Source: an uncultured delta proteobacterium
Lineage (GTDB): Bacteria; Myxococcota_A; Polyangia; Polyangiales; Polyangiaceae
Length of the DNA stretch: 64,000 nt
Assembly (NCBI GenBank): GCA_963782055.1
Contig: CAWAIF010000003.1
Coordinates: 3,552,001-3,616,000, forward strand
Reading direction: 5' to 3'
Made by a program: the position numbers and the translations under genes
In this document: positions 3 through 12,449 of the stretch, one piece after another
How positions within the stretch are numbered: position 1 is the stretch's first letter
Layout: every line of letters begins with the position of its first letter
Notes under the pieces: generated by a model
What the model was told of the DNA's origin: nothing
The model's input: only the letters and a program-made list of their open reading frames with translations
Database searches by the model: none

Positions 3-323
3 GCGCGCCTGGACGCCGCCGACGGCCTCGTCCAGATCCTGCTCAACCCCGACCCGCAGGCCCGCGTGCTGCTCGCGCTCAAGCAGCAGGCGGAGGTCCA
101 CGGCGAGCCCTCGCCGGAGGGGATCCGCATGCGCCTGGCGCCGGACACGCTCGCCATGGACGTCGGCGTCGAGCCGGCGCAGGTCTACGATGTGCTCTGG
201 CGACTGCACCGGTTGAAGATCATCGCCGACCCGGGCGACGGCACCTTGCTCATCGCCGACCTGGCCCGCCTCCACGAGTTCCTGGAGCTCGTGGAGATGC
301 CGAGAAAGTTCGAGGGCAGCTGA
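3..323 (+). CDS. Crp/Fnr-family (cyclic-nucleotide-binding) regulator, C-terminal part; 5' end outside window
   Basis: Frame open from window start (ARLDAADGLVQILLNPDPQARVLLAL...); HTH-Crp-like tail; TGATG-coupled to a cNMP phosphodiesterase. Confidence 0.55.
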   Translation, partial: ARLDAADGLVQILLNPDPQARVLLALKQQAEVHGEPSPEGIRMRLAPDTLAMDVGVEPAQVYDVLWRLHRLKIIADPGDGTLLIADLARLHEFLELVEMPRKFEGS

Positions 324-1090
324 TGGACCTGAAGGTCATCGGCTGCCACGGCGGGGAGACGCCGAAGCACCGCACCAGCGCCTTTGTGCTCGACGATCGC
401 CTCGCCATCGACGCCGGCTCCCTCACGAGCGGCATGGAGCTCAAGGCCCAGTGCGCGCTGGAGGCGTGCCTGGTCAGCCACGCGCACCTGGACCACATCC
501 GCGACCTGGCGACGATCGCCGACAACCGCGCGCAGAACGGCTGCGCCCCGCTCATCGTGGCGGGCACCCGTCAGACGATCGCCATCCTGAAGAAGCATTT
601 CTTCAACAACCTGCTCTGGCCGGACTTCACCAAGATCCCCAACGCTCAGCGGCCGACGATCCAGTACCTCCTCCTCAAGCCGGAGGTGGAGACCGTCATC
701 GCCGGCTACACCGTGCGCTCCATCCTGGTCAGCCACACCATCGAGTGCGGCGGCTTCGTCATCTCCGGCAAGGACGGCTCGCTCGCCTACAGCGGGGATA
801 CAGGCCCGACCGAGCGGCTGTGGGAGGTGCTCAACGAGACGCCGGACCTGCGCGCGATGCTCATGGAAGTGAGCTTCCCCAACTCCGAGCAGCGCCTCGC
901 GCGGGTGAGCGGGCACCACACCCCCGCCTCCCTCGCCGACGACCTGGCCAAGTACAAAAACCCAAAAGATCTCCCTACGTTGCTCTACCACATCAAACCT
1001 GTTTTCCAGCGTGTGGTGGAGCGCGAGTGTGGCAAGCTGAAGGGCGTGAACCTGACGCTGCTCGGCCTGGGCGACCACTTCATCCTGTAA
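323..1090 (+). CDS. Class II 3',5'-cyclic-nucleotide phosphodiesterase (metallo-beta-lactamase fold)
   Basis: GCHGG N-terminus, IDAG, SHAHLDH metal motif, FNNLLWPDF, YSGDTGP, EVSFPN, SGHHTP. Confidence 0.8.
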   Translation: MDLKVIGCHGGETPKHRTSAFVLDDRLAIDAGSLTSGMELKAQCALEACLVSHAHLDHIRDLATIADNRAQNGCAPLIVAGTRQTIAILKKHFFNNLLWPDFTKIPNAQRPTIQYLLLKPEVETVIAGYTVRSILVSHTIECGGFVISGKDGSLAYSGDTGPTERLWEVLNETPDLRAMLMEVSFPNSEQRLARVSGHHTPASLADDLAKYKNPKDLPTLLYHIKPVFQRVVERECGKLKGVNLTLLGLGDHFIL

Positions 1091-1130: not shown

Positions 1131-3482
1131 TTGGGGCTTGCCGTGACGCTGACGCACGTGACCGACGACCAGATCCCCGGCCTGGAGGACGACGAGGAGG
1201 GGGCGCGCCTCGTCCGCGAGGAGCTGCGCCTGCTCGCCACCATCCAGCGCGCCCTGGAGGCGGCGCAGAAGGCGTCCAGCACCGCCGGGGAGGGCAGGGC
1301 GCTGGACGACGCGCGCCTGCTCGAGCTGCGCGACGACGTGGCGGTCGCCAAGCCGGAGGACCTGCCCGCGCTCTTCGAGCAGATGCACACCCTCGGCGCG
1401 CTGCGGGCGCAGCGCGGCAAGGGGCAGGCGGGCGCGGTGGACCGGCAGAGCCCGTACTTCGGCCACCTGCGCCTGGTGGAGGACGGCAAGCGGCGCGACG
1501 TGCTCATCGGCTCGCGCAGCTACCTGGACTCCGCCGCCGGGATCCGCATCGTGGACTGGCGCAACGCGCCGGTGAGCAAGATCTACTACCGCTACCAGGA
1601 AGGGGAGGACTACGAGGAGCCCCTCGGCGATCGCATCGTGGAGGGCGTGGTCGCCGCGCGGCGCAGCGTCGCCATCGTCGGCGGGGAGCTGGTCCGCGTC
1701 GCGGGGCCGCAGGGGACCTTCACCCGCAAAGGCGGGCGGTGGCTCCGCGTGGCCACGCAGCACGCGCGCCTGAGCATGGAGAAGCGCGAGCCGAAGGACG
1801 CGCGCCTGGGCATCGGGGCCGACGGGCAGATGCGGCAGGACAAGCACCTGCCGGAGATCGCCGCCATGCTCGACGCGGCGCAGTTCGAGCTCATCGCCCG
1901 CCCCAGCTCCGGGCTGGTGGCCATCCAGGGCAGCGCGGGCAGCGGCAAGACGACGGTCGGGCTGCACCGCGCGGCGTACCTGGCCTTCGCCGACCCGCGG
2001 CGCTTCCGTCCGGACCGCATGCTGATCGTCGTCCCGCACGAGGCGCTGCGCCACTATGTGGGCCGCGTGCTGCCGTCGCTCGGCGTCGAGGGCGTGGCCA
2101 TCACCACCTTCGATCGCTTCGCCCGGAGGGTGATGCCCGGCCTCTTTCCGCGGCTGCCCGGCGCCATCTCCGACGAGACACCGCCGGTCGTTTCCCGCGC
2201 CAAGGCGCACCCGGCGATGCTGCGGGCGATCACCGCGCACCGCGCGCGCGTCGCCGCCTCCCTGGACCAGAAGGTGCGCTCCGCGATGGGCCGCTGGCCG
2301 AACGGCGAGCTGGTGGTGAAGGCGTGGGCTGCCACCGCGGAGCTGGGCGTGCCCGACCTGCGCGTGACTGCGCTGGCGCAGTGGGTGGCGGGCAAGCGCA
2401 AGGTCATCCCGGATCCCCCCTCCGCGCTGCCCGACGTGACGCGCAGCGCGCTGGACAAGCTCGGCCACGACCTGCGCGGCCTCTCCCGCGGGATCGTGGG
2501 CGCGTGGGATGAGCTCACCACCTCCCGCGAGCGCCTGGCGGAGACGTTCGCCGCCATCCCCGGCTTCGGCAAGGGGCAGCTCGATCAGGTGCACGACTGG
2601 TGTGTGCGGCAGGCGCGCGTGCGGGCGGACGGGGAGCGCGACGGCGAGCGCCCCTCGCTGGACCTGGAGGACCACGCCCTGCTGCTGCGCCTCTGGCAGG
2701 CGCTGCGCGGGCCGATCGTCGATCCCGACGGCGCGCCCCTGCGCTTCGCGCACCTGTTCGTGGACGAGGTGCAGGACGTCTCGCCGGTGGCGCTGCGGGT
2801 GCTGCTGGAGCTCGCCGACAAGGACCAGAGCATCACCCTCGCCGGGGACACGGCGCAGCGCATGCTGGACGACGAGGACAGCGGCGGGGAGCTGGACTGG
2901 AACGGCCTGCTGGAGGAGATGGGGCTCCCGCACACCAAGCTGGAGCCCCTGAAGGTGAGCTACCGCTCCACCACCGAGATCACACGCTTCGCGCGGGGCG
3001 TGCTCGGCCCCTACGCGCACGAGGCGGAGCCCATCGCCACGCGGCACGGGCCGCCGGTGGAGCTGTTCGAGTTCGCCTCCCCGGGCGAGGCGGTCGCCTT
3101 CCTCGCGGACGCGCTCAAGCAGCTCGCGCGGGAGGAGCCGCAGGCCAACGTGGCGCTGCTCGCGCGCTTCGGCCCGCAGGCGGACGTGTACTTCGAGGGG
3201 CTCTCGCGCGCGGAGGTGCCCAACGTCCGACGCGTCACCAAGCAGGACTTCACCTGGGAGGCCGGCTTCGACATCACCGACATCCGGCAGACCAAGGGGC
3301 TGGAGTTCGACGAGGTGGTGCTGCTGGAGACCAACGCCTCCTCCTTCCCGGATCGCTCGCAGGCGCGGCACGCGCTGTACGTCGGCGCGACACGCGCGGC
3401 GCACCAGCTCTGGTGCACGACGAGCGAGCGGCCGTCCCCCGTCGTGACGGTGGCGCTGGAGGGTCAGTACTCCGAGACGTAG
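1131..3482 (+). CDS. HelD-like SF1/UvrD-family ATPase (RNA polymerase recycling helicase-like)
   Basis: SPYFGHL, IVDWRNAP, Walker A GSAGSGKTT, VDEVQD, GDxAQ, SYRS, KGLEFD, LYVGATRA. Confidence 0.75.
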   Translation: MGLAVTLTHVTDDQIPGLEDDEEGARLVREELRLLATIQRALEAAQKASSTAGEGRALDDARLLELRDDVAVAKPEDLPALFEQMHTLGALRAQRGKGQAGAVDRQSPYFGHLRLVEDGKRRDVLIGSRSYLDSAAGIRIVDWRNAPVSKIYYRYQEGEDYEEPLGDRIVEGVVAARRSVAIVGGELVRVAGPQGTFTRKGGRWLRVATQHARLSMEKREPKDARLGIGADGQMRQDKHLPEIAAMLDAAQFELIARPSSGLVAIQGSAGSGKTTVGLHRAAYLAFADPRRFRPDRMLIVVPHEALRHYVGRVLPSLGVEGVAITTFDRFARRVMPGLFPRLPGAISDETPPVVSRAKAHPAMLRAITAHRARVAASLDQKVRSAMGRWPNGELVVKAWAATAELGVPDLRVTALAQWVAGKRKVIPDPPSALPDVTRSALDKLGHDLRGLSRGIVGAWDELTTSRERLAETFAAIPGFGKGQLDQVHDWCVRQARVRADGERDGERPSLDLEDHALLLRLWQALRGPIVDPDGAPLRFAHLFVDEVQDVSPVALRVLLELADKDQSITLAGDTAQRMLDDEDSGGELDWNGLLEEMGLPHTKLEPLKVSYRSTTEITRFARGVLGPYAHEAEPIATRHGPPVELFEFASPGEAVAFLADALKQLAREEPQANVALLARFGPQADVYFEGLSRAEVPNVRRVTKQDFTWEAGFDITDIRQTKGLEFDEVVLLETNASSFPDRSQARHALYVGATRAAHQLWCTTSERPSPVVTVALEGQYSET

Positions 3483-4084
3483 ACGGCGAGGGTCTTGCCG
3501 CCATCGGCGGAGGCGCCCCAGTCCACGTTGATGGTGACCGTCGCGGGGCCCGCGGCGCAGGTGGCGTCGTAGGCGATCTGCACGCCGCCCACGCCGGGCA
3601 TGCACTCGATGACGAGGCGGTGGGTACCCGGAGGCCCGGCGTCGGCCTCGCCCGCCGAGACGAGCGTGCCGCCGGAGACGCGCGGATCGGCCGGGGCGGC
3701 GGCGGACGCGGATGGGGTCGCCGACGGTGCCGCGGACGGGGACGGAGCGGCCGGCGCCGATGCGGCGCCTGGCGCGGGCGCGGACGCCGACGCCGGCGGC
3801 GCCACCGCCGGCGCGAAGCTGGCCCCCGAAAGGGTGGGGGGCTGGACCGTCACCTCCAGCCGGGTGTGCGCGGCGTCGAGCCACGTCGCCTTCGCCACGA
3901 CGGTGCCGGCGATGCCCGGGCAGCGCGTGGGCGGTGGCATGGGGTCGACCACCGCGTAGCCACCCGTCGTCGAGCTGCAGCGGTTGCAAGCGACCGTGCC
4001 CACGAGCGCGGCGGTGGTCACCAGCCGCTGCATGTGGGCGATGGTCTTTCTCCGCGGGCCGCTGCTCGCCGGCGGGCCCTTCAT
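3464..4084 (-). CDS. Hypothetical lipoprotein-like protein, paralog of 4209..4916 (candidate radical SAM substrate)
   Basis: GAGGAG RBS, ATGA overlap with upstream ORF; RRKTIAHMQRLV leader, hydrophobic stretch ending TVAC, GYAVVDPMPPPTRCPGIA, Ala/Pro linker, ends VSEY. Confidence 0.7.
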   Translation of the reverse strand: MKGPPASSGPRRKTIAHMQRLVTTAALVGTVACNRCSSTTGGYAVVDPMPPPTRCPGIAGTVVAKATWLDAAHTRLEVTVQPPTLSGASFAPAVAPPASASAPAPGAASAPAAPSPSAAPSATPSASAAAPADPRVSGGTLVSAGEADAGPPGTHRLVIECMPGVGGVQIAYDATCAAGPATVTINVDWGASADGGKTLAVYVSEY

Positions 4085-4197
4085 GACTCCTCGCCGGAAC
4101 GGGACGTCGTCGCCGCGAGGGCGCCCACCTCGAGCGCCATCAGCTTGCGCATGTGCCGCAGGGTGGAGCGGCGAGAGCCACTGTCGCGGGGAGACAT
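4081..4197 (-). CDS. 38-aa peptide MSPRDSGSRRSTLRHMRKLMALEVGALAATTSRSGEES sharing the leader motif of its neighbours
   Basis: Tail of ORF 4081..4761; fills the gap between the two paralogs; stop overlaps the next start; motif RRSTLRHMRKL. Confidence 0.55.
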   Translation of the reverse strand: MSPRDSGSRRSTLRHMRKLMALEVGALAATTSRSGEES

Positions 4198-4208
4198 GCG
4201 CGCTTCAT

Positions 4209-4916
4209 TCAGTAGTCGGAGAGCTGGATGCTCGTCTTGGTGCCAGCAGTGGGGGTGCCTGTCCACTGCACGTTGGCGGTGAGGTGACCGGGGCCGGCGG
4301 AGCACGCCACCCCGGCGGACACGCCGAGCGAGGCGGAGCCGGCGGAGGACGAGGTGGGGCGAAGCCGCAGGATCACGCTGTGCCCGTTGAACTTCGCCCC
4401 GAGCAGGTTGGAGCCCCAGGAGGAGGGCGGCGCGCTCTTGTCGAACTGGGCGCCGTTGGCGCTGCCGAGGGTGATCGTCACCTCCAGATACACGCCGGTC
4501 TTGTCCTTGTGGAAGACGGCGGTGGCCTTCGCCGCGGCGGCGATCCCCGCGCAGCGCGCCGGCGCCGGCATGGGGTCGACCACCGCGTAGCCGGTGGGAG
4601 GCGCTGTGGCCGTCGGCGTGGCGGTCGCGGTGGGCACGGTGTGCTGGTGCGAGGCCATCGGGTTGGTGCCGGGGGTGGTCCCGGCGGCGCCGCCGTCCTC
4701 GGTGGAGGGGGGGATGGTGACGCTCACCGCGTCGGCGTTCTGCCCGGACTCGCGCGAGCACGCGGCCGCGGACACGGCGGCGGCGGTGGCGAGCAGGCGC
4801 CGCATGTGGCCCAGCGTGCGGTCCCGGACCGGCCCGCGCGCGGAGGCCGTGGGGGCGGGGAGCACCTCCGGCATCAACCCCAGCCTTCGCTTCCCGTTGG
4901 CGTTCTTCGTCTGCAT
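4209..4916 (-). CDS. Hypothetical lipoprotein-like protein (235 aa), paralog of 3464..4084
   Basis: GGGAGA RBS before ATG at 4916; RDRTLGHMRRLLA leader, AAAC lipobox-like, GYAVVDPMPAPARCAGIA, ends LSDY. Confidence 0.7.
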   Translation of the reverse strand: MQTKNANGKRRLGLMPEVLPAPTASARGPVRDRTLGHMRRLLATAAAVSAAACSRESGQNADAVSVTIPPSTEDGGAAGTTPGTNPMASHQHTVPTATATPTATAPPTGYAVVDPMPAPARCAGIAAAAKATAVFHKDKTGVYLEVTITLGSANGAQFDKSAPPSSWGSNLLGAKFNGHSVILRLRPTSSSAGSASLGVSAGVACSAGPGHLTANVQWTGTPTAGTKTSIQLSDY

Positions 4917-4936
4917 GTGCGTTCTCCCTGAGCGGG

Positions 4937-6583
4937 TCAGTGCCCCACCGCGATGGCCATGGCGCGCGCGGCCTGCAGCGGCGTGGCGACGCGATCCCCG
5001 ATGTCGGTGAGCGGCTTGCCGCGGCCCAGGCGCGCGTGGATGCGCCGCGCGAGGTCCTGGCAGCGCGCCCGGACGCTCGCCTCGGTGGCGCGCAGGGTGG
5101 GCACCAGCCGCGCGATCAGGGCGCGCTCCTCCTCGTGGGAGCCGTTGCGCTCCACCAGGTCCAGGATGGCCTCCATCGCCACCACGCCGTCGAGCGTCAG
5201 CGTGGCCGTGAGCTCCTTGCCCTCGGCGAGCCACGCCGGGTCGAAGACGTCGGAGTGGAAGTGCCGGGCGACCTCCACGTCGAAGCGCGTGCCCATGATG
5301 CGGTTGGAGAGCGCCTCCGGGCCGAAGTTGCGATCCATGAAGCACTCCATCGCCAGGCTGAAGACGCGCTCCACCTCCGGGCTGCCCAGGTCGTAGTCCC
5401 ACTGCAGGTAGTCGCCGCGCACGCGGTTCTCTGCCTGCATCCGCGCGAGGATCGGGGTGCCGGCGTACAGCTCGACGCGGCCGAAGTTGGACGGATACTC
5501 CGGCGCGTAGCGCAAGAACTCCATGTTCGTCCGGAGGCTCTCCAGCGTCGTGTCCGGGTCGAAGATGAGCATGTTGTAACAGGTGTACAGGTCCAGGCTG
5601 CGCACCAGGTCGATGGCGTCGTGGTTCTGCCGCGACTTCGCCCAGCGCCGCAGCGTGCGCAGGCCCTGGTCGGCGTCCGTCTCGATGCCGATGTAGCAGC
5701 GGATGCAGTGCAGCCGCTCGCACAGGATGCGGAAGACCTCCGGATCGCAGTCGGTGGGCCGCGCCTTGACGACGGTGGCGAAGCGGCCGATGCCGCGCGC
5801 CTCGAGGGCGTCGGCCAGCGCGGTGAAGCGCTCGCGGTTGTGGCGGTGGCCGGGCACGAAGAAGTTGTCGTCGTGGAAGACGAAGATGTCGACGCCGCGC
5901 TCCCGCTGCATCGCGACCATCTCGTCGGCCACCGCGTCGACCTCGCGCACGCGGTAGCGCTTGCCGGGGAGGCTCTGCTCGTGCCACGCGGCGATGCAGC
6001 AGAAGGAGCAGTTGGCGTAGCAGCCGCGGCTGGAGACCAGCGGGGCGATGCCGTGGCCGAAGCACGACGCGGGCTCACCACGGCGGTCGGGCCAGGGCAA
6101 CTTCGATAAGTCGGGCAGGGGCGGATGCTCGGTGATGACGATGCTGCCGTCGTCCGCGCGCAGGGCGAGGCCTGGCAGCTCGCGGTACGACGCGCCCGTC
6201 TCCAGGGCGCGGCAGAGCGCCAGCATCGTCTCCTCCGCTTCCTGCCGCACGACCGTGTCGATCTCCGGGAAGTCGGCCAGGATCTCGGCGGCGGCGAAGG
6301 TGCCGAAGTGGCCGCCCACGGTGATGTGCCCGCGGTAGCCGCCCTCGCGCAGGGCGACGGCGAAGGCCAGGAAGTCCCGGGCGCGCCACTGGAACGCCAG
6401 CGACAGGCCCACCACGAGGGGCGGCTCCGGCGCCTGAAGAATGGCCCGGAGGGCGGGCAGAAAGTCCGCCTCCATGTTGAACGGGACAATCTGCGTCTCG
6501 TAGCCCGCAGGGGCGATCGACGAGGCGATGTACCGCAGGCTCAGGTTCTCCTCGATCTCCGGTCCGACGAGCGCCACCCACAT
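4937..6583 (-). CDS. Cobalamin-dependent (class B) radical SAM enzyme, probable methyltransferase
   Basis: AAGGAG RBS; N-terminal B12-binding-like domain (ENLSLRYIAS, GGHFGT, EAEET); SSRGCYANCSFC CxxxCxxC; FHDDNF; YIGIE; YAGTP. Confidence 0.85.
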   Translation of the reverse strand: MWVALVGPEIEENLSLRYIASSIAPAGYETQIVPFNMEADFLPALRAILQAPEPPLVVGLSLAFQWRARDFLAFAVALREGGYRGHITVGGHFGTFAAAEILADFPEIDTVVRQEAEETMLALCRALETGASYRELPGLALRADDGSIVITEHPPLPDLSKLPWPDRRGEPASCFGHGIAPLVSSRGCYANCSFCCIAAWHEQSLPGKRYRVREVDAVADEMVAMQRERGVDIFVFHDDNFFVPGHRHNRERFTALADALEARGIGRFATVVKARPTDCDPEVFRILCERLHCIRCYIGIETDADQGLRTLRRWAKSRQNHDAIDLVRSLDLYTCYNMLIFDPDTTLESLRTNMEFLRYAPEYPSNFGRVELYAGTPILARMQAENRVRGDYLQWDYDLGSPEVERVFSLAMECFMDRNFGPEALSNRIMGTRFDVEVARHFHSDVFDPAWLAEGKELTATLTLDGVVAMEAILDLVERNGSHEEERALIARLVPTLRATEASVRARCQDLARRIHARLGRGKPLTDIGDRVATPLQAARAMAIAVGH

Positions 6584-6845
6584 GCTTGCACGGCTCCTTC
6601 GACCCGCATGCGGCGCGGGTCTCCAGGAGGGTACGCGGCACGGCGCGAGGGGCTCTCCTGAAAACGCCATCTGGGCGCGAAATGTGGGCGCACATGTGGG
6701 ACGGCGCTGGCGGCGGCCTTTCCCCCGGCCGAAACAAAAAGTTTACATAATGTATCTTATGCGAATTTCGTAGGAGGGCGAGGGAGGGGGGCCTGCGGTC
6801 GTTCGAGCGGCCCCCGCCGCGAGCGCGCGCCTGCCCAGCCGGCTT

Positions 6846-8138
6846 TTACGGCGTGTCCCGGCGGCCCAGCGGCGGATCGATCCCGAAGCCCAGGAAGGTG
6901 CCGCCGCTGGAGAGCGCGTAGAGCCGGTTGCCGTACGCCGCGGGGCTCGCCGAGAACGCGCTGCCCGTGAGGAAGCCGGACTCCATGTTGATGCCGTCAA
7001 TCGGGCGGCCGTCCAGCGGCGAGACGATGAACAGGCCATAGCGCGAGGTGCCGATGGCGAGCGTTCCGGCGACCGGCACCGGCGCGGTGACGCCGCCCTC
7101 CGGGACCGGCAGCCGCCAGAGCGGCGTGCCGCTGGCGGGGTCCATGGCCCAGAGGCCTGTCGACGCGCTGGCGGCGAAGAGCATGCGGCGCGCGGGCACC
7201 GTGGGGCCACCCTTGCTCGCACCCTTGGGGTGCGGCTTGTGCGCCGGCTCCTCCCAGTACAGCACGTCGTGGACGCCGCGCGCGTGGGTGTTCGCCCAGA
7301 CCCGCGCGCCCGACTCGGCGTCGAGCGCGTAGACGCCGCCGGCGTAGCTCGCCACGAACGCCACCCGGCCCACGCCCGGCAGGTCCGCCACGGCGGGTGT
7401 CGTGTCGACGTCCAGGTAGCGCTGGCTCTCCGCCGGACCGAGCGACTGCTCCGCCTCGGCCGCCAGGTCGACGCTCCACTGCTCGGCGCCGTTGCGCACG
7501 TCGTAGGCGCCGACGTGGCCGTCGGAGAACGCCAGCAGCACGTGGCCGTGGTCCAGCGTGGGCCCGGAGGCGCCGCCGATCTCGATCCCCAGCGCCGGCG
7601 TGCGGTGCACCTGCCAGAGCTGGTGTCCGGTGCGGCGGTTGACGGCGAAGAGCTGATCGGAGACGTTGGCGAAGAGCAAGGTCTCGCCGAAAAGCACTGG
7701 TTTTCTGCTGACTTCGCTCCCAGTATCAAAGCGCCAGATGAGGCCCCCGTCGGAGGCCCGGACCGCGTAGAGGGCGCCGTCGCCGGAGCCGAAGTAGACG
7801 ACGTCCAGGGCGCGATCGTAGAGCGGCTCGCTCTGCACCACCCCCGCCGTCTCGAAGCGCCAGATGGTGCTGCCATCGAAGGCGCGCAGGGCGTAGAGGC
7901 CGTGATCGGAGGTGCCCACGAAGATGCGCTTGCTGGCGGGGTCGATCTCCGGCTTGCCGCGCTCGAAGTCCTCCCCCACCTTCCGCCCCTCGATCGTCAG
8001 GGTGCGCCGGAAGACGAGGTGCAGATCGCCGCTCGGCCGGTGGAACCAGTCGGGGGTCTCCGGATTGATGCGATCGCCCTGGGCCGTCGCGCACGCCGAG
8101 GTCGCCGCGACGAGGAGGCACGCGACCTGGCGCTTCAC
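6846..8138 (-). CDS. PQQ-like beta-propeller lipoprotein (BamB-like)
   Basis: TSAC lipobox; repeated LYAL/VxAxDGxxIWRF blades; follows a YfgM-like TPR gene, as in yfgM-bamB synteny. Confidence 0.75.
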   Translation of the reverse strand: MKRQVACLLVAATSACATAQGDRINPETPDWFHRPSGDLHLVFRRTLTIEGRKVGEDFERGKPEIDPASKRIFVGTSDHGLYALRAFDGSTIWRFETAGVVQSEPLYDRALDVVYFGSGDGALYAVRASDGGLIWRFDTGSEVSRKPVLFGETLLFANVSDQLFAVNRRTGHQLWQVHRTPALGIEIGGASGPTLDHGHVLLAFSDGHVGAYDVRNGAEQWSVDLAAEAEQSLGPAESQRYLDVDTTPAVADLPGVGRVAFVASYAGGVYALDAESGARVWANTHARGVHDVLYWEEPAHKPHPKGASKGGPTVPARRMLFAASASTGLWAMDPASGTPLWRLPVPEGGVTAPVPVAGTLAIGTSRYGLFIVSPLDGRPIDGINMESGFLTGSAFSASPAAYGNRLYALSSGGTFLGFGIDPPLGRRDTP

Positions 8139-9460
8139 TCCGGGGCCCTCTTCTGCTGGTGAAGCAGCTTCGCGCGGAGCTCGGGCGGGAGCTGGTTGAT
8201 CAGCTCCGGCGGCAGCTCCCCGTTGGCGCCGATGTGCGGCTTGCGCGCGGGGAGCGCGGTGGGATCCAGCCGCCGCAGTCGCCCCTCTGTCGACTCCTTG
8301 AGGGCGTCGAAGAGGTGCTCGCTCCCCGCCTTGGTCAGGTCTTCGTAGAGCTTCTTCAGGATCTCGATGGCCTTGGCCTTGTCGCCCTTGGTCTCGTAGC
8401 AGCGCGCCTCGTGGTAGCGGGCCATCTGCGAGAAGCCGAGGACGTCGCTCGCCTCCATCTGCTTGTACTGCTGCAGGGCGGCGTCCAGGTCCTTGTCCTT
8501 CTGATCCGGCTTCTGCACCGCCTCGAGCTCGTAGGCGAAGCCGAGGCCCTCCATCGCCCGGCCCTTGACCTCCGGATCGGCCATGGCGAGGGGCGAGGCG
8601 ATGACCTCGTTGAAGGCGGCCATGGCGCCCTTGGCGTCCTGCTTGTCCAGCAGCAGCGACCCCTCCCCCAGACGCGCCAGGGTCGCGGCGCCGGTGCCAG
8701 GGTAGGTGGTGGCGGTCTCGCGGTACTTGGCGAGCGCCGCGTCCTGCCGCGCCGCCACGGTGGCGAAGACCTTGATGGGCGGCTTGGGGCGCGAGTCGTC
8801 GTCGTCGTCGGGGTTGCCGATCATGCCCTGCTCGTCGGCGACGGCCTCCGAAAGCGCGGCGGACGCGGCGACGGTCTGCGAGTGCTCGTGGTACGCGTAG
8901 ACGCCCAGCCCGATGCCGCCGAGCACGATGGCCACGGCGGCGGCCTGCACCAGTCGGGTGTTGCGCTTGGCCCAGTCGCCGAAGCGCTGGGTGCGGTCGA
9001 TGATGGGATCGGCGGCCTCCACCGCCTCGGGGACGGCGCGCTTGCGCGGCTTGGCCTTGGTGCCGATCTTGGCCAGCCGGCGCGAGGCGGCGGCGTCCAG
9101 CCCGGCCTTCTTCTTCTTCTTGGGGCCGCGCTCCTTGGTGCGCCGCGCCGCGAGCTTGGCCTCTTCCTCGCGGGCGAGGCGCTCGTCGTCCTCTTCTTCG
9201 TCCCCACCCAGAGCTTCCAGACGCTTGGCGATGGCCTCGGGGGAAGCGGAGTCTTGCTCCTCCTCTTCATCCTCTTCGTCTTCGTCTTCGTCCTCGTCGC
9301 CGGACGCGCTCTCGTCCTCCCCGCTGGACTTCGCCTCGGCCTTGGCCTCGCCGGGCTCGGCGTCGCCGGGCTCGGCGTCGCCGGACTCGTCCGACTCCTC
9401 GGCCTCGGACTCGTCTTCGGGCTCTTCTTCTGCGGGCTTCTTCTTCTCGTCCTCGGACAC
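8135..9460 (-). CDS. Membrane-anchored TPR protein (YfgM-like) with long acidic N-terminal tail
   Basis: Probable GTG start at 9460 (MSEDEKKKP); D/E-rich low complexity; one TM helix; TPR-like helices (YPGTGAATLARL). Confidence 0.6.
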   Translation of the reverse strand: MSEDEKKKPAEEEPEDESEAEESDESGDAEPGDAEPGEAKAEAKSSGEDESASGDEDEDEDEEDEEEEQDSASPEAIAKRLEALGGDEEEDDERLAREEEAKLAARRTKERGPKKKKKAGLDAAASRRLAKIGTKAKPRKRAVPEAVEAADPIIDRTQRFGDWAKRNTRLVQAAAVAIVLGGIGLGVYAYHEHSQTVAASAALSEAVADEQGMIGNPDDDDDSRPKPPIKVFATVAARQDAALAKYRETATTYPGTGAATLARLGEGSLLLDKQDAKGAMAAFNEVIASPLAMADPEVKGRAMEGLGFAYELEAVQKPDQKDKDLDAALQQYKQMEASDVLGFSQMARYHEARCYETKGDKAKAIEILKKLYEDLTKAGSEHLFDALKESTEGRLRRLDPTALPARKPHIGANGELPPELINQLPPELRAKLLHQQKRAPE

Positions 9461-9521: not shown

Positions 9522-12449
9522 TCAATCGGTCCCCGCGTCCTTGGGGGCGGGTGGGGGCAGCTCGGGGGCTCGCGGGACGACCCAGAAGCCGAGCACGCCG
9601 GAGGCCGCCGCCGCGGCCACCTCCACGGCAACGCGGCCGGCGTGGCGGTCGGGCAGGTCCGCGGTCCGCTCGGTCCCCTCACCGCCCAGCGGCACCTCGA
9701 CCCCGTCGACCTTCGCGCTCACCTTTCCCGCTCCGCCGACCAGCACGAGCAAGCGCGCCGGGCCGTCCTCGGACAGCGCGACCTTCTGCGCCACCTGACC
9801 CGGCGTGGCGCCCGCCGGCGCGGTCCAGCCGCCGTGGGCGGCGTCGAGTAGCGCGGCCTGCCGCGCCGTCGCGACCGCGCCAGCCATCGGCTCGGGCACC
9901 CCGGCGAAGCGTCGCAGCGGCTCGCGCAGCTCCTGCCGCACGCCCAGCGCGAGCAGCGCGCGCGCCTCGTGCGGGCGCGTCGTGACGTAGCGCTCCTTCG
10001 CGAACTGGGCGAGCAGCGGTCCGCTCGCCGACGCGTCGCCGATCGCCCCCAGCGCGTCCGCCAGGTAAGGGCGCAGGCGCACGTCGTCCAGCGCGCCGAC
10101 CAGCGCGGGCACGGCGGCGCGGCTCCGCACCTTCCCGAGGGCGCTCAGGATCTCCCGCTGCCGCGCGAAGGACACCTGCTTGTCCCCGAGCCACGCCGCC
10201 AGGTCCGCCGCGCCGCGGTCGTCGCCCTGCTCTGCGAACGCGAGCCCCGCACGCCGCCGCCACGCCGGGTCGGGGTCCTTCGCCAGCGCCTGCGCCTCCG
10301 GCGACGCCGGCTGCCCGACGCGCAACAGGGCGAGCGCGCACCAGCGACGGACGTCGGCGTCCTCGTCCTTCTGCAGGGCGCGCCGCAGCGAGGGCGCGAC
10401 GTCGGCGGAGCGCAGGTCGTAGAGCGCGGCCGCCGCCTTGCGACGCACCTTCACGTCGGCGTCGTCCAGCAGGCCCGCGGTGTCGGGCGCGGCGGTCACG
10501 TCGCCCTGCATCGCCCGGCGCAGCGCCTCCGGCAGCCCGGAGGTCCCCTGCCCCTCCAGCTTCCCCTGCTCGCTGATGAGCGTGTCCAGCTCGGCGTGCA
10601 TGCGACGCGTGTCGGCCGCTCGGTCGCGCGCGATGTCGTGCCGCTCGTGCGGATCGGTGGCGATGTCGTAGAGCGCGCACGCCCCCAGGTGCTTCTGGCA
10701 CACCAGCCGCAGGCTCCGCTCGGCGAGCAGGGCGTAGTCGTCGGTCTCCGCCAGGGCGAGGCCGGCGTCGTCCGGGGCGTCCTTGCCGGCCAGCAGCGGT
10801 CCCAGATCGCGGCCGCGCACGCGGGCAGGTCGCGGGATGCCGAGCGCCGAGAGGGTCGTCGGGAAGAGGTCGATGGTCTGCACCGGTGTCGCGACGCGCG
10901 CGGGCCGCACGCCCGGGCCGACCACCACCAGCGGCACCCGCACCTGCTCCTCGTAGACCGAGCTGCCGTGGTAGCGCCCGCCGTGATCGCCGAACTCCTC
11001 GCCGTGATCGGCCGTGACGATGACCACCACGCGCGGGCGCGCCTTGCGCACCATGCCGACGATGGCGCCGATGCCGTCGTCGGCCTCGGCGATCTCGCCG
11101 TCGTAGCGGTCCAGATCGCTCTGGCCGTCGCCGAAGCGGTGGTCGGAGTGGGCGACGTAGGGCTCGTGCGGCTCGAAGAAGTGCACCCAGAGAAAGAGCG
11201 GCGTCCCCGGCGCGGCGTGCGCCAGGTAGTCGCGCATCTGCGCCTCACGCAGCGCGGGGCCGGCGAACTCCTCCTTGCGGTACTCGAAGTCCAGCCCTCG
11301 GTCGCGGAAGGCGGTGAAGCGATCAGGGTCGATGAAGAAGACGGCGGGCGGGTAGAAGGCGGCCGTCCGGTAGCCGTAGCGGCGCGACGCCGCCGCCCAG
11401 GTCTCCGAGTCCTCCCCCAGGCCGAGGGTGAGCAGCGGCCGCATGTACTTGCCGGTCATCAGCGAGGTCACCGAGTACGACGTGTGCGGCGTCGGGCAGT
11501 AGGCGTGCTCGAAGAGCGCGCCCTCGCGCGCCAGGGCGTCGAGGTGCGGAGTCGTCGGGCGGCCGTAGCCGTAGGCGCCGACGTGATCGGCCCGCAGCGC
11601 GTCCACCGTGATGAGCAGCACGTCGCGGCCGCCCCAGTCCAGCGCGCGCGGCACCTCGCCGGGCATCGCCACCTTCACCGTCGCCTCCGGCGGCGGCGGC
11701 GCGATCCACGATGCCAGGCGCACCCCCCTGCCCTCCCACGGCGCGTGCTCGACCAGCAGCAGGCGCATGTTGTCGTAGCTCTGGAGGCTGTGGGCGCCGA
11801 GCGGCCCGAGGACCACGCCCAGCGCCGCGAAGCCGATGGACACCCAGACACCGCGGCCGAGCTGCGGGGCGATCGCCAGGCCGGCGAGCGACCACGCGAG
11901 CCAGGAGGTGGCGAAGAGGCCGGCGTGGAAGGCCGGGTAGAGGCGCGGCAGCACCGCGGCGTCCGCCCAGATGAGCGCCGCCCCGAGCGCCGCCATGAGC
12001 GCGGCGAGCACCCAGGGCCGGGCGCGCGCGCGGGCGACGAGCGCCGGGAGGCCGAGCGCGAGCACCGCCGCGCCGGCCGCGCCGGCGGCCACCACGAAGG
12101 GCGCGCGCAGCGCCCAGGAGGCGAAGTGGCGGCCGAAGGTGACGCCGTAGCCCTGGGCGAGCCCCGCGGCGCCGCCGGCCGCGGCCAGCGCGCGCCGCGA
12201 CGCCGGGGAGGGCGCGAGCGACGCGCGCCACGCGAGCACCGCGAGCGGAGACGCCGCGAGCATCACCGCGGCCAGCATGGGCATGACGAAGATGCGGTCG
12301 GGCGTGAGCTCCCAGAAGCCGGTGAACTGCGGGCGGAAGCGCAGGCCCACCGCCGCATGCTCCAGCAGCAGGCCGGCGATGCAGCCGGTCAGGGCCGCGC
12401 CGGCGTCCCGCGCGAAGCGCGAGAACCTGCCGTCGTCCCGTGCGCCCAA
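9522..12449 (-). CDS. Membrane-anchored sulfatase-like hydrolase/transferase with C-terminal HEAT repeats
   Basis: Multi-TM N-terminus; LITVDALRADH, TPHLDALA, WVHFFEPHEPY, YDGEI, TADHGEEFGDHG; DADVKVRRKAA HEAT-like repeats. Confidence 0.75.
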   Translation of the reverse strand: MGARDDGRFSRFARDAGAALTGCIAGLLLEHAAVGLRFRPQFTGFWELTPDRIFVMPMLAAVMLAASPLAVLAWRASLAPSPASRRALAAAGGAAGLAQGYGVTFGRHFASWALRAPFVVAAGAAGAAVLALGLPALVARARARPWVLAALMAALGAALIWADAAVLPRLYPAFHAGLFATSWLAWSLAGLAIAPQLGRGVWVSIGFAALGVVLGPLGAHSLQSYDNMRLLLVEHAPWEGRGVRLASWIAPPPPEATVKVAMPGEVPRALDWGGRDVLLITVDALRADHVGAYGYGRPTTPHLDALAREGALFEHAYCPTPHTSYSVTSLMTGKYMRPLLTLGLGEDSETWAAASRRYGYRTAAFYPPAVFFIDPDRFTAFRDRGLDFEYRKEEFAGPALREAQMRDYLAHAAPGTPLFLWVHFFEPHEPYVAHSDHRFGDGQSDLDRYDGEIAEADDGIGAIVGMVRKARPRVVVIVTADHGEEFGDHGGRYHGSSVYEEQVRVPLVVVGPGVRPARVATPVQTIDLFPTTLSALGIPRPARVRGRDLGPLLAGKDAPDDAGLALAETDDYALLAERSLRLVCQKHLGACALYDIATDPHERHDIARDRAADTRRMHAELDTLISEQGKLEGQGTSGLPEALRRAMQGDVTAAPDTAGLLDDADVKVRRKAAAALYDLRSADVAPSLRRALQKDEDADVRRWCALALLRVGQPASPEAQALAKDPDPAWRRRAGLAFAEQGDDRGAADLAAWLGDKQVSFARQREILSALGKVRSRAAVPALVGALDDVRLRPYLADALGAIGDASASGPLLAQFAKERYVTTRPHEARALLALGVRQELREPLRRFAGVPEPMAGAVATARQAALLDAAHGGWTAPAGATPGQVAQKVALSEDGPARLLVLVGGAGKVSAKVDGVEVPLGGEGTERTADLPDRHAGRVAVEVAAAAASGVLGFWVVPRAPELPPPAPKDAGTD

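Follow-up and report, generated by a model that had tools for sequence, protein, structure and literature searches.

Gene content of the locus

The locus occupies positions 3464-6583 of the analysed window, a stretch of 64,000 nucleotides from an uncultured member of the Polyangiaceae (GCA_963782055.1, contig CAWAIF010000003.1). It consists of a gene for a B12-binding radical SAM enzyme (4937-6583, 548 aa) and, as an earlier sequence-only reading had described, three open reading frames (ORFs) that follow it on the same, minus strand. These are precursor 1 (4209-4916, 235 aa; supported by translation, alignments and a structure model), a 38-aa leader-only ORF (4081-4197) and precursor 2 (3464-4084, 206 aa), whose start overlaps the stop of the 38-aa ORF. 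Two DNA read runs cover scattered pieces of the region only and do not reach the 3' part of the 38-aa ORF, where the assembly could therefore be wrong.

The flanks hold a convergent gene for a HelD-like helicase and a BamB gene, in line with the earlier remark that no peptidase or transporter gene is adjacent. No riboswitch or other RNA element was found between positions 3000 and 7200. Just upstream of the system, at 6739-6768 (no strand), lies what we take to be a dif-like chromosome resolution site. It is single-copy in the genome, the polarity of KOPS-like octamers switches there, and the GC-skew maximum lies 43 kb away. We regard it as context and not as a part of the system.

Precursor proteins

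Precursor 1 is built, in order, of a long N-terminal region, the leader (4794-4826, minus strand, located by pattern and profile search), a hydrophobic stretch, Cys53, a Thr/Pro-rich linker, the core motif GYAVVDPMPAP (4560-4592, minus strand; Asp114 codon at 4575-4577) and an all-beta end domain. Its structure model had a pLDDT of 89.9. Precursor 2 shows the order leader (4022-4054), Cys33 (3986-3988), core motif GYAVVDPMPPP (3929-3961, minus strand; Asp47 codon at 3944-3946) and an end domain bearing an Ala/Pro-rich insert. Its core is predicted to lie inside the enzyme barrel.

The motif RxxT(L/I)xHMx(R/K)L had been quoted before from all three ORFs, and each copy was recovered. A six-frame search of the 7.6-Mb genome for RxxT[LI]xHMx[RK]L gave four occurrences, three at the locus and one at C3:1662081, and three shuffled genomes gave 0, 0 and 1. 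With a leader profile, only four ORFs of this genome scored at least 19.6 bits; the next best reached 12.7 bits. Two paralogues are unlinked to the locus, C3:1661425-1662147 and C3:4420238-4420834 (truncated). An amphipathic leader helix was considered and rejected, its moment being 0.37 vs 0.36 for shuffled sequences.

The earlier reading had grouped the three motif-bearing ORFs together. The middle ORF, however, has no Cys, no core motif and no C-terminal domain, which leaves the two full precursors as the possible substrates. The 38-aa ORF is an N-terminal stub, 36-46% identical to a Cys-less third-gene family of 104-140 aa that bears the core motif in relatives. By this similarity it is a remnant of that family, reduced to the leader.

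The precursors matched no Pfam family. The end domain matched neither a Pfam nor an NCBIfam family, the Atlas gave no match, and Foldseek returned none at E <=0.001, its top rows being N-terminal DsbD (TM 0.34-0.44). Most precursors retain a folded domain, whose two invariant Cys lie 3-5 residues past the core. Short precursors with two cores and without an end domain occur at three loci (L017, L018, L022). Leader and core persist while the remaining precursor changes, and the leader spans unrelated mature regions and families.

Both lipobox-like cysteines noted earlier (AAAC and TVAC) are present; they lie in the two full precursors, each of which combines a hydrophobic stretch with a lipobox Cys. 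Among 115 leader-bearing sequences, 25 matched the strict and 95 the relaxed lipobox pattern; a Cys was present in 105 and absent from 10. The genome encodes Lgt (three genes) and LspA (two genes). Tat export was rejected: the twin arginine is not conserved, and V/P/A and A/G/D/S predominate on either side of the anchoring Arg. The window's own BamB likewise has a relaxed lipobox.

The B12-binding radical SAM enzyme

In Pfam, the enzyme scored 48.7 bits with PF02310 (cut-off 32.1) and 37.9 bits with PF04055 (cut-off 29.5). A CxxxCxxC motif lies at residues 188-195, and its three Cys are invariant across all clades. By domain content, the product of 4937-6583 qualifies as a B12-dependent (class B) radical SAM enzyme. 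It belongs to a split-type clade and has no N-terminal signal.

No NCBIfam family reached its cut-off with the enzyme. The top score was for BchE, far under the cut-off, and the lipid enzymes HpnR and HpnJ were among the other below-cut-off matches. The closest solved relative was OxsB (E 1.8e-19), which is not known to methylate. W66 aligns to Trp76 of TokK, the Trp under the cobalamin in TokK/CysS-type radical methylases, but an alignment gap adjoins it. Among the split enzymes 26 of 27 keep Trp at this position, and fused ones vary; in TokK, Trp76 was reported to tolerate substitution. CobS was not found in the genome (97% complete), so B12 would have to be imported.

Co-occurrence of enzyme and motif proteins

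Motif-bearing neighbours proved to be the rule for enzyme homologues of this clade, as the sequence-only reading had anticipated. A same-strand leader ORF was present in 26 of 29 loci selected by the enzyme, as found with a leader profile made from 40 sequences of these same loci. The strict core pattern occurred in 47 of the 53 leader ORFs of the 26 loci; most of the leader ORFs have a GYxVVD(P/M)xPxP core. None of 50 loci of other enzyme clades had a leader match.

When metagenomes were scanned for the core alone, the enzyme was present in 26 of 61 loci, and in 19 of the 23 loci that had at least 1.5 kb of upstream DNA. The other four comprised three orphan-like loci and one resembling a chance match. 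Within the limited sensitivity of the search, leader-plus-core proteins were detected solely in enzyme-holding genomes, which agrees with the earlier expectation that motif proteins do not occur widely without the enzyme. Weak precursor matches in seven other genomes included none with leader plus core. In a single case, an enzyme-less genome (G038) encoded an end-domain homologue with an ordinary signal and without a core. No further biosynthetic gene was conserved near the enzyme loci; BamB and HelD alone recurred, each at 9 of 28 loci.

Fused relatives and the wider family

Relatives at a greater distance from the enzyme (27-44% identical), one of which is encoded in this genome (C3:3161625-3163556), bear a C-terminal fusion made up of a hydrophobic segment, in most cases a lipobox-like Cys, and [D/E]-x-x-P repeats in tandem. 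Across 401 genomes, the signal-like segment and tail were fused to the enzyme in 40 of 57 family matches. Tail statistics were based on the 91 long proteins among the best 150 cluster representatives. Of these, 89 had a hydrophobic segment and 75 a subsequent Cys. Asp-type cores were observed 94 times (20.9 expected) and Glu-type cores 112 times (12.6 expected). The tails hold up to 11 core repeats and terminate in varied envelope domains, e.g. TonB_C, Ig-like and ankyrin.

The wider family comprised 718 clusters at E <=1e-30 and was found in Myxococcota and one Acidobacterium; its members are currently annotated as BchE or YgiQ. Three core-contacting residues, Y297, N427 and G431, differ between Asp-tail and Glu-tail enzymes, a covariation that amounts to about two changes per label on the tree. 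Tyr is an unlikely family-wide target because most fused cores lack it; in the split clade it could be one.

Predicted enzyme-precursor complex

Complex prediction gave a score of 0.90 for enzyme and precursor, and 0.13 for the best of three controls. The score mark is passed by 116 of 157 solved complexes vs 2 of 215 mismatched pairs, counts that apply only roughly here. Runs shared at least 68% of contacts, with a partner pLDDT of at least 65. In the predicted complex, the leader sits at the B12-binding domain and the barrel takes up the core. Conservation of the core-contacting face was 0.89 vs a background of 0.75. On the predicted leader-binding face, clade-specific residues were not enriched (3/25 vs 77/496). 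The fusion proteins and this score both support the earlier interpretation.

Proposed pathway and alternatives

We put the probability at roughly 0.55 that the enzyme binds the signal-region leader and C-methylates the core at or beside the Asp, after which general lipoprotein export and anchoring would follow. The sequences themselves show the domain content, the operon, the conserved motifs, their co-occurrence with the enzyme and the fusion of such cores to enzyme homologues. According to the complex model, a leader handle RxRTxxH(M/L)xxL in the precursor signal region would be gripped by the enzyme, its helix (R11, T14, H17, M18, L21) lying against the outside of the B12 domain while the core threads into the barrel. 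As is usual for the family, one SAM would generate the radical and methylcobalamin would donate the methyl group. Conservation suggests that the acidic core residue is either the target or a key recognition residue. Sec export and Lgt lipidation would come next, and LspA would then remove leader and signal, in the role of a leader peptidase; the modification would have to outrun export. This would yield an envelope protein, anchored in the membrane, whose modified proline-rich stalk precedes a disulfide-bonded beta-sandwich. Our guess is that the modification stiffens the stalk or protects it from proteases. The two unlinked paralogues may be served in trans.

A broader evolutionary proposal is more tentative, and we would not bet on it at even odds. 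The split system could be a modular offshoot of a widespread family of enzymes that equip acid-x-x-Pro envelope stalks with an unusual residue, for example methyl-Asp, methyl-Glu or a novel backbone alteration, and whose ancestors had their substrate in the same chain, behind a buried lipobox. After fission, the signal peptide would have gained an 11-residue, RRE-less leader that docks on the B12 domain. Such a leader would be a portable tag to put the modification on any exported protein.

The same partners and docking could also serve a non-methyl chemistry in which the Asp/Glu-x-x-Pro core undergoes a radical rearrangement, is decarboxylated or becomes cross-linked. We consider this unlikely, though it has points in its favour: OxsB as best solved relative, BchE as best (far below cut-off) NCBIfam score, the near-constant Trp at the TokK position in split but not fused enzymes, and the C-S, C-P, ring contraction and cyclisation reactions published for B12 radical SAM enzymes. 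Methylation is, however, the commonest reaction of these enzymes according to the accessible part of PMC11659888, and the handling of Asp and Glu cores by one family would suit simple C-H methylation. It is distinctly improbable that the substrate is a small molecule or lipid, with the motif proteins as regulators, tethers or product carriers. HpnR and HpnJ among the sub-cut-off matches and the variety of envelope domains ending the tails would fit such a role. It would leave the repetition of the core in fused tails and its predicted place inside the barrel unaccounted for, no other biosynthetic gene is conserved near the loci, where BamB and HelD alone recur, and an exported core would be across the membrane from the enzyme.

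The short repeated-core precursors without a folded domain would suit later excision of the modified core by an unlinked protease, yielding a small secreted peptide in classical RiPP style. We give this little credence, since the core has no conserved flanking peptidase, transporter or cleavage motif and is followed in most precursors by the folded domain with its two invariant Cys. Least probable by far is a shared motif that is simply the inherited signal-peptide sequence of duplicated genes, unrelated to the enzyme. The precursors are indeed paralogues and the leader-binding face lacks special conservation, but the leader persists over unrelated mature regions, the complex scores far above its controls, and in the one case where a genome without the enzyme encodes an end-domain homologue, that protein bears a plain signal and lacks the core.

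Comparison with known systems

The sequence-only reading did not recognise the system as a described one, and a search of mostly open-access literature found no description of it. Cytoplasmic tailoring ahead of the lipoprotein pathway, however, has been published as DAG-RiPPs (PMC13056109). As presented in the accessible text of that paper, these are RiPP-lipoprotein hybrids (DybA/DybH) with MNIO (ChrH-type) enzymes and a CPACGMG core. They share with the proposed pathway a cytoplasmic enzyme, an internal motif, a lipoprotein-signal precursor, Lgt/LspA processing and the lack of a dedicated peptidase. The features by which DAG-RiPPs are recognised, a lipobox-Cys precursor and an adjacent modifying enzyme with a conserved core, are found here in sequences and models. 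DAG-RiPPs combine an MNIO enzyme with a CPACG-type core, whereas this locus combines a B12 radical SAM enzyme with an acid-x-x-Pro core. In the same accessible text, radical SAM, cobalamin, B12 and "fused" have 0 mentions, and enzyme-substrate fusions, which occur in relatives of this enzyme, do not appear. It predicts DAG-RiPP pathways to be leader-independent or follower-based (PMC13056109), whereas the present leader seems to form part of the signal region. If the methylation pathway is true, RiPP-lipoprotein hybrids extend from MNIO to B12 radical SAM enzymes, and a lipoprotein signal peptide doubles as an enzyme-recruiting leader, which PMC13056109 deemed unlikely.

ApyD of the aminopyruvatide pathway, likewise a B12 radical SAM enzyme, methylates a ribosomally made peptide (10.1101/2023.10.30.564719), as the present enzyme would in our proposal. 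The ApyD system has an RRE, beta-methyl-Tyr in a C-terminal GYLYD motif and MNIO/P450 partners; here there is no RRE family match, the core is internal and no such partner lies at the locus. An argument for Asp methylation by analogy was rejected because ApyD methylates Tyr. The ApyD family NF050148 gave 74 bits with our enzyme against a cut-off of 750 (E 7e-21). In proteusins, the B12 radical SAM enzymes PoyB and PoyC act on a peptide in a leader-guided manner. The RiPP C-methyltransferase family TIGR03975 scored 43 bits (cut-off 282), and proteusin/TIGR03975 systems have Nif11 or nitrile-hydratase-like leaders, whereas here there are none and the substrates are lipoprotein-like.

The C-methyltransferases of methyl-coenzyme M reductase (the Gln enzyme and Mmp10) are alike in methylating residues of a full-size protein with B12 radical SAM chemistry. 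In the accessible accounts, their target is cytoplasmic and archaeal, without leader or export, unlike here. TIGR04014 scored 53 bits against a cut-off of 360. The main text of a 2026 review of B12 radical SAM enzymes mentions neither lipoprotein, aspartate nor proline. If the proposed pathway is right, it supplies a testable substrate, an 11-residue core with a named Asp, for enzymes that number hundreds of clusters, and the short leader and core could serve site-specific C-H functionalisation of proteins.

Borosins hold a backbone alpha-N-methyltransferase and core in one chain and are not known to have an internal lipoprotein signal; the alpha-N-methyltransferase domain is absent from the domain content of our enzyme. 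The fused relatives share this one-chain layout of enzyme and core, whereas the copy in the window is split, and the proposed pathway would link split and self-modifying layouts within one family.

The operon and its precursors

Translation of the window recovered the four ORFs of the sequence-only reading, all on the minus strand: a B12-binding radical SAM gene (4937-6583, 548 aa), precursor 1 (4209-4916), a 38-aa ORF (4081-4197) and precursor 2 (3464-4084). Both enzyme domains scored above Pfam cut-offs, and the enzyme reached no NCBIfam family cut-off. Its nearest relatives were named as Polyangiaceae and other Myxococcota. Genes for Lgt and LspA were both present in the genome; CobS was sought there and not found.

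The leader consensus, RxxT(L/I)xHMx(R/K)L, occurred four times in this genome, versus 0, 0 and 1 times in three shuffles. With a leader profile, four ORFs scored at least 19.6 bits, two of them at the operon and two unlinked; the next best reached 12.7. The unlinked precursors (G000:C3:1661425-1662147, minus strand; G000:C3:4420238-4420834, plus strand) each combine the leader with a Cys and the core GSDPVPPP. The latter is cut short and sits ~2.7 kb from a transposase-like ORF. An ORF near a precursor paralogue is presumably methylmalonyl-CoA-mutase-like. The 38-aa ORF scored 12.4; it is a stub from the third-gene family, which has no Cys and whose full-length members carry the core. Therefore, at most two of the three leader-sharing ORFs could serve as substrates.

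The precursor N-region is basic, with R-x-R-T-x-x-H-(M/L)-x-x-(L/M), and is followed by a short Ala-rich hydrophobic stretch, Cys, a variable linker, the Asp-containing core and usually an end domain. The Cys was found in 105 of 115 precursors (lipobox strict in 25, relaxed in 95). Conservation of the core is circular at the positions that had served for selection; more telling are that leader and core are kept while the remaining precursor sequence is exchanged, and that the residue after the core Asp varies (P, M, E). The end domain, of ~115 aa and with two invariant Cys, was modelled as all-beta (pLDDT 89.9), with no significant match among solved structures. A second conserved element, RRL-x-x-MPEVLP-x-P, precedes the leader in many first-position precursors (residues 10-23 of protein P0002); it lies outside the fragment modelled with the enzyme.

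Co-occurrence of enzyme and precursor

The system is real, conserved and specific, and its chemistry is putative. Twenty-nine loci were picked by the enzyme alone (at least 48% identity, tail absent). As the sequence-only reading had expected of enzyme homologues, motif-bearing neighbours were usual: a same-strand leader ORF, in runs of up to seven, was present at 26/29 loci, a partly circular count because the leader profile was trained on 40 sequences from these same loci. The other three were a 1.7-kb contig, a gene close to a contig end and a divergent leader recognized by eye. The strict core pattern was met by 47 of 53 leader ORFs; the six off pattern comprised two close variants, an apparent frameshift, the 38-aa stub, a probably spurious match and a divergent short precursor.

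An independent test used a core-only DNA pattern, which retrieved 61 distinct metagenome loci. The enzyme, each time of the split type, was found at 26 of them, and at 19/23 of those with at least 1.5 kb of upstream DNA. The converse possibility, motif proteins occurring widely without the enzyme, was not borne out: leader-plus-core proteins were found in 6 of the 401 genomes of the phylum, always adjoining a split enzyme, among the 7-17 candidates scored per genome, in a search that divergent precursors of two enzyme-bearing genomes escaped, so that further such proteins may exist elsewhere. In one genome that lacks the enzyme, a protein with the end domain has an ordinary signal and is devoid of the core.

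Fused and short relatives

Of the 401 genomes, 40 contained family matches, 57 in all. Forty of these are fused and 8 split; another 8 are short enzymes that lack a tail, and one sequence is cut off, some labels being assigned by eye. In the fused enzymes the reading frame stays open into a basic-hydrophobic segment, mostly with a Cys after it, and on through cores in tandem; 28 are of Asp type and 11 of Glu type, and the remaining one lacks both a Cys and a clear core. The present genome has one such paralogue (G000:C3:3161625-3163556, minus strand), 43% identical to the enzyme, whose tail has an internal signal-like segment, Cys and five D-P-x-P repeats. Among the best 150 of 718 cluster representatives (E up to 1e-30), 91 had at least 620 aa, with a hydrophobic segment in 89 and Cys in 75. 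With patterns fixed beforehand on an earlier sample, Asp and Glu cores in these 91 were 4.5-fold and 9-fold above shuffles. At their ends, fused tails carry a TonB_C, Ig-like, ankyrin, TSP3 or esterase domain. The P0203 cluster (Ca. Sulfotelmatobacter), annotated just as "TonB family protein", joins the enzyme through a lipobox-like Cys and a Glu-type core to CarboxypepD_reg and TonB_C domains. The acidic residue was the sole position common to every core examined, and the Pro three places on nearly so.

A quick, midpoint-rooted tree covered 75 of 80 enzymes, five rows having been removed as partial or frameshifted. All 26 split enzymes in it fell on one branch (SH-aLRT 100) amid fused and short clades. 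The split form may have arisen by gene fission, the split label being partly defined by identity and the root being a midpoint. More than one split layout is suggested, because next to some short enzymes there are genes for lipoprotein-like proteins that have an Asp or Glu core and lack that leader. Upstream genes at four short-enzyme positions (L082, L091, L043/L104, L085) encode homologous lipoprotein-like proteins, two with a Glu-type AEMAP core and a fused-tail-like end domain; at L073, a lipoprotein-like ORF lies downstream, with an Asp core and without the leader.

Predicted complex and proposed mechanism

The enzyme (68 alignment rows) and residues 1-55 of precursor 2 (34 rows) were modelled together, SAM and a 4Fe-4S cluster being included. 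The complex scored 0.90 in three runs, against at most 0.13 for three controls; the mark was met by 116/157 solved complexes and 2/215 mismatched pairs, counts only roughly valid for this job. Contact agreement between runs was at least 68% and partner pLDDT at least 65. The model supports a predicted binding of leader to enzyme, placing the leader on B12-domain residues 38-43, 69-77 and 100-105, plus 389-396, and the core against residues of the barrel and the C-terminal part, among them K273, R295, Y297, N337, R369, E371, N427 and G431. Three residues tracked tail type (N427, 16/16 Asp-type versus 2/48 Glu-type enzymes; Q65, 16/16 versus 10/48; Y297, 13/16 versus 0/48), a pattern found ahead of the prediction and resting on ~2 changes per label on the tree. 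Clade-specific conservation was not found on the leader-binding face, which counts against the model. Solved structures included only distant enzymes and no complex of this family.

We propose that the leader would tether the unfolded precursor to the enzyme, which would modify the core, after which Sec, Lgt and LspA would yield a lipid-anchored protein. With a probability of about 0.55, the leader-held core is C-methylated at or beside Asp before this delivery. If the core is modified, the odds that Asp is the site would be about even, with Pro, Val or Tyr taking the remainder. Radical chemistry of another kind is a less probable alternative. That the motif proteins have a non-substrate role is unlikely, and release of the modified core as a peptide is more doubtful still. 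Least probable is mere descent of the shared motif.

The system is a variant of RiPP-lipoprotein hybrids, with putative chemistry. DAG-RiPPs follow the same logic of pathway with MNIO enzymes instead, and their defining paper expects them to be leader-independent (PMC13056109). ApyD, the aminopyruvatide enzyme, is reported to methylate Tyr (10.1101/2023.10.30.564719). No description of the present system was found among openly accessible main texts.

Genomic neighbourhood

Positions 6739-6768 hold what we take to be a dif-like site. It is unique in the genome and KOPS-like octamer polarity flips there; the GC-skew maximum is 43 kb off. In 10 related loci the same site precedes the enzyme by 0.1-4.9 kb, once in inverted orientation. 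The operon therefore lies at the terminus of replication, and the DNA between site and enzyme is variable. A HelD/HelR-like RNA polymerase recycling helicase (1131-3482, plus strand; family cut-offs not reached) is convergent with the operon, overlaps its last gene by 19 bases and is close by in 9/28 related loci. On the other side, 6846-9457 (minus strand) encodes a TPR_21 protein with an acidic N-terminus and then a BamB-like lipoprotein, BamB being close by in 9/28 related loci. The window also encodes a class II cAMP phosphodiesterase-like protein (323-1090, plus strand) and a membrane sulfatase with HEAT repeats (9522-12449, minus strand).
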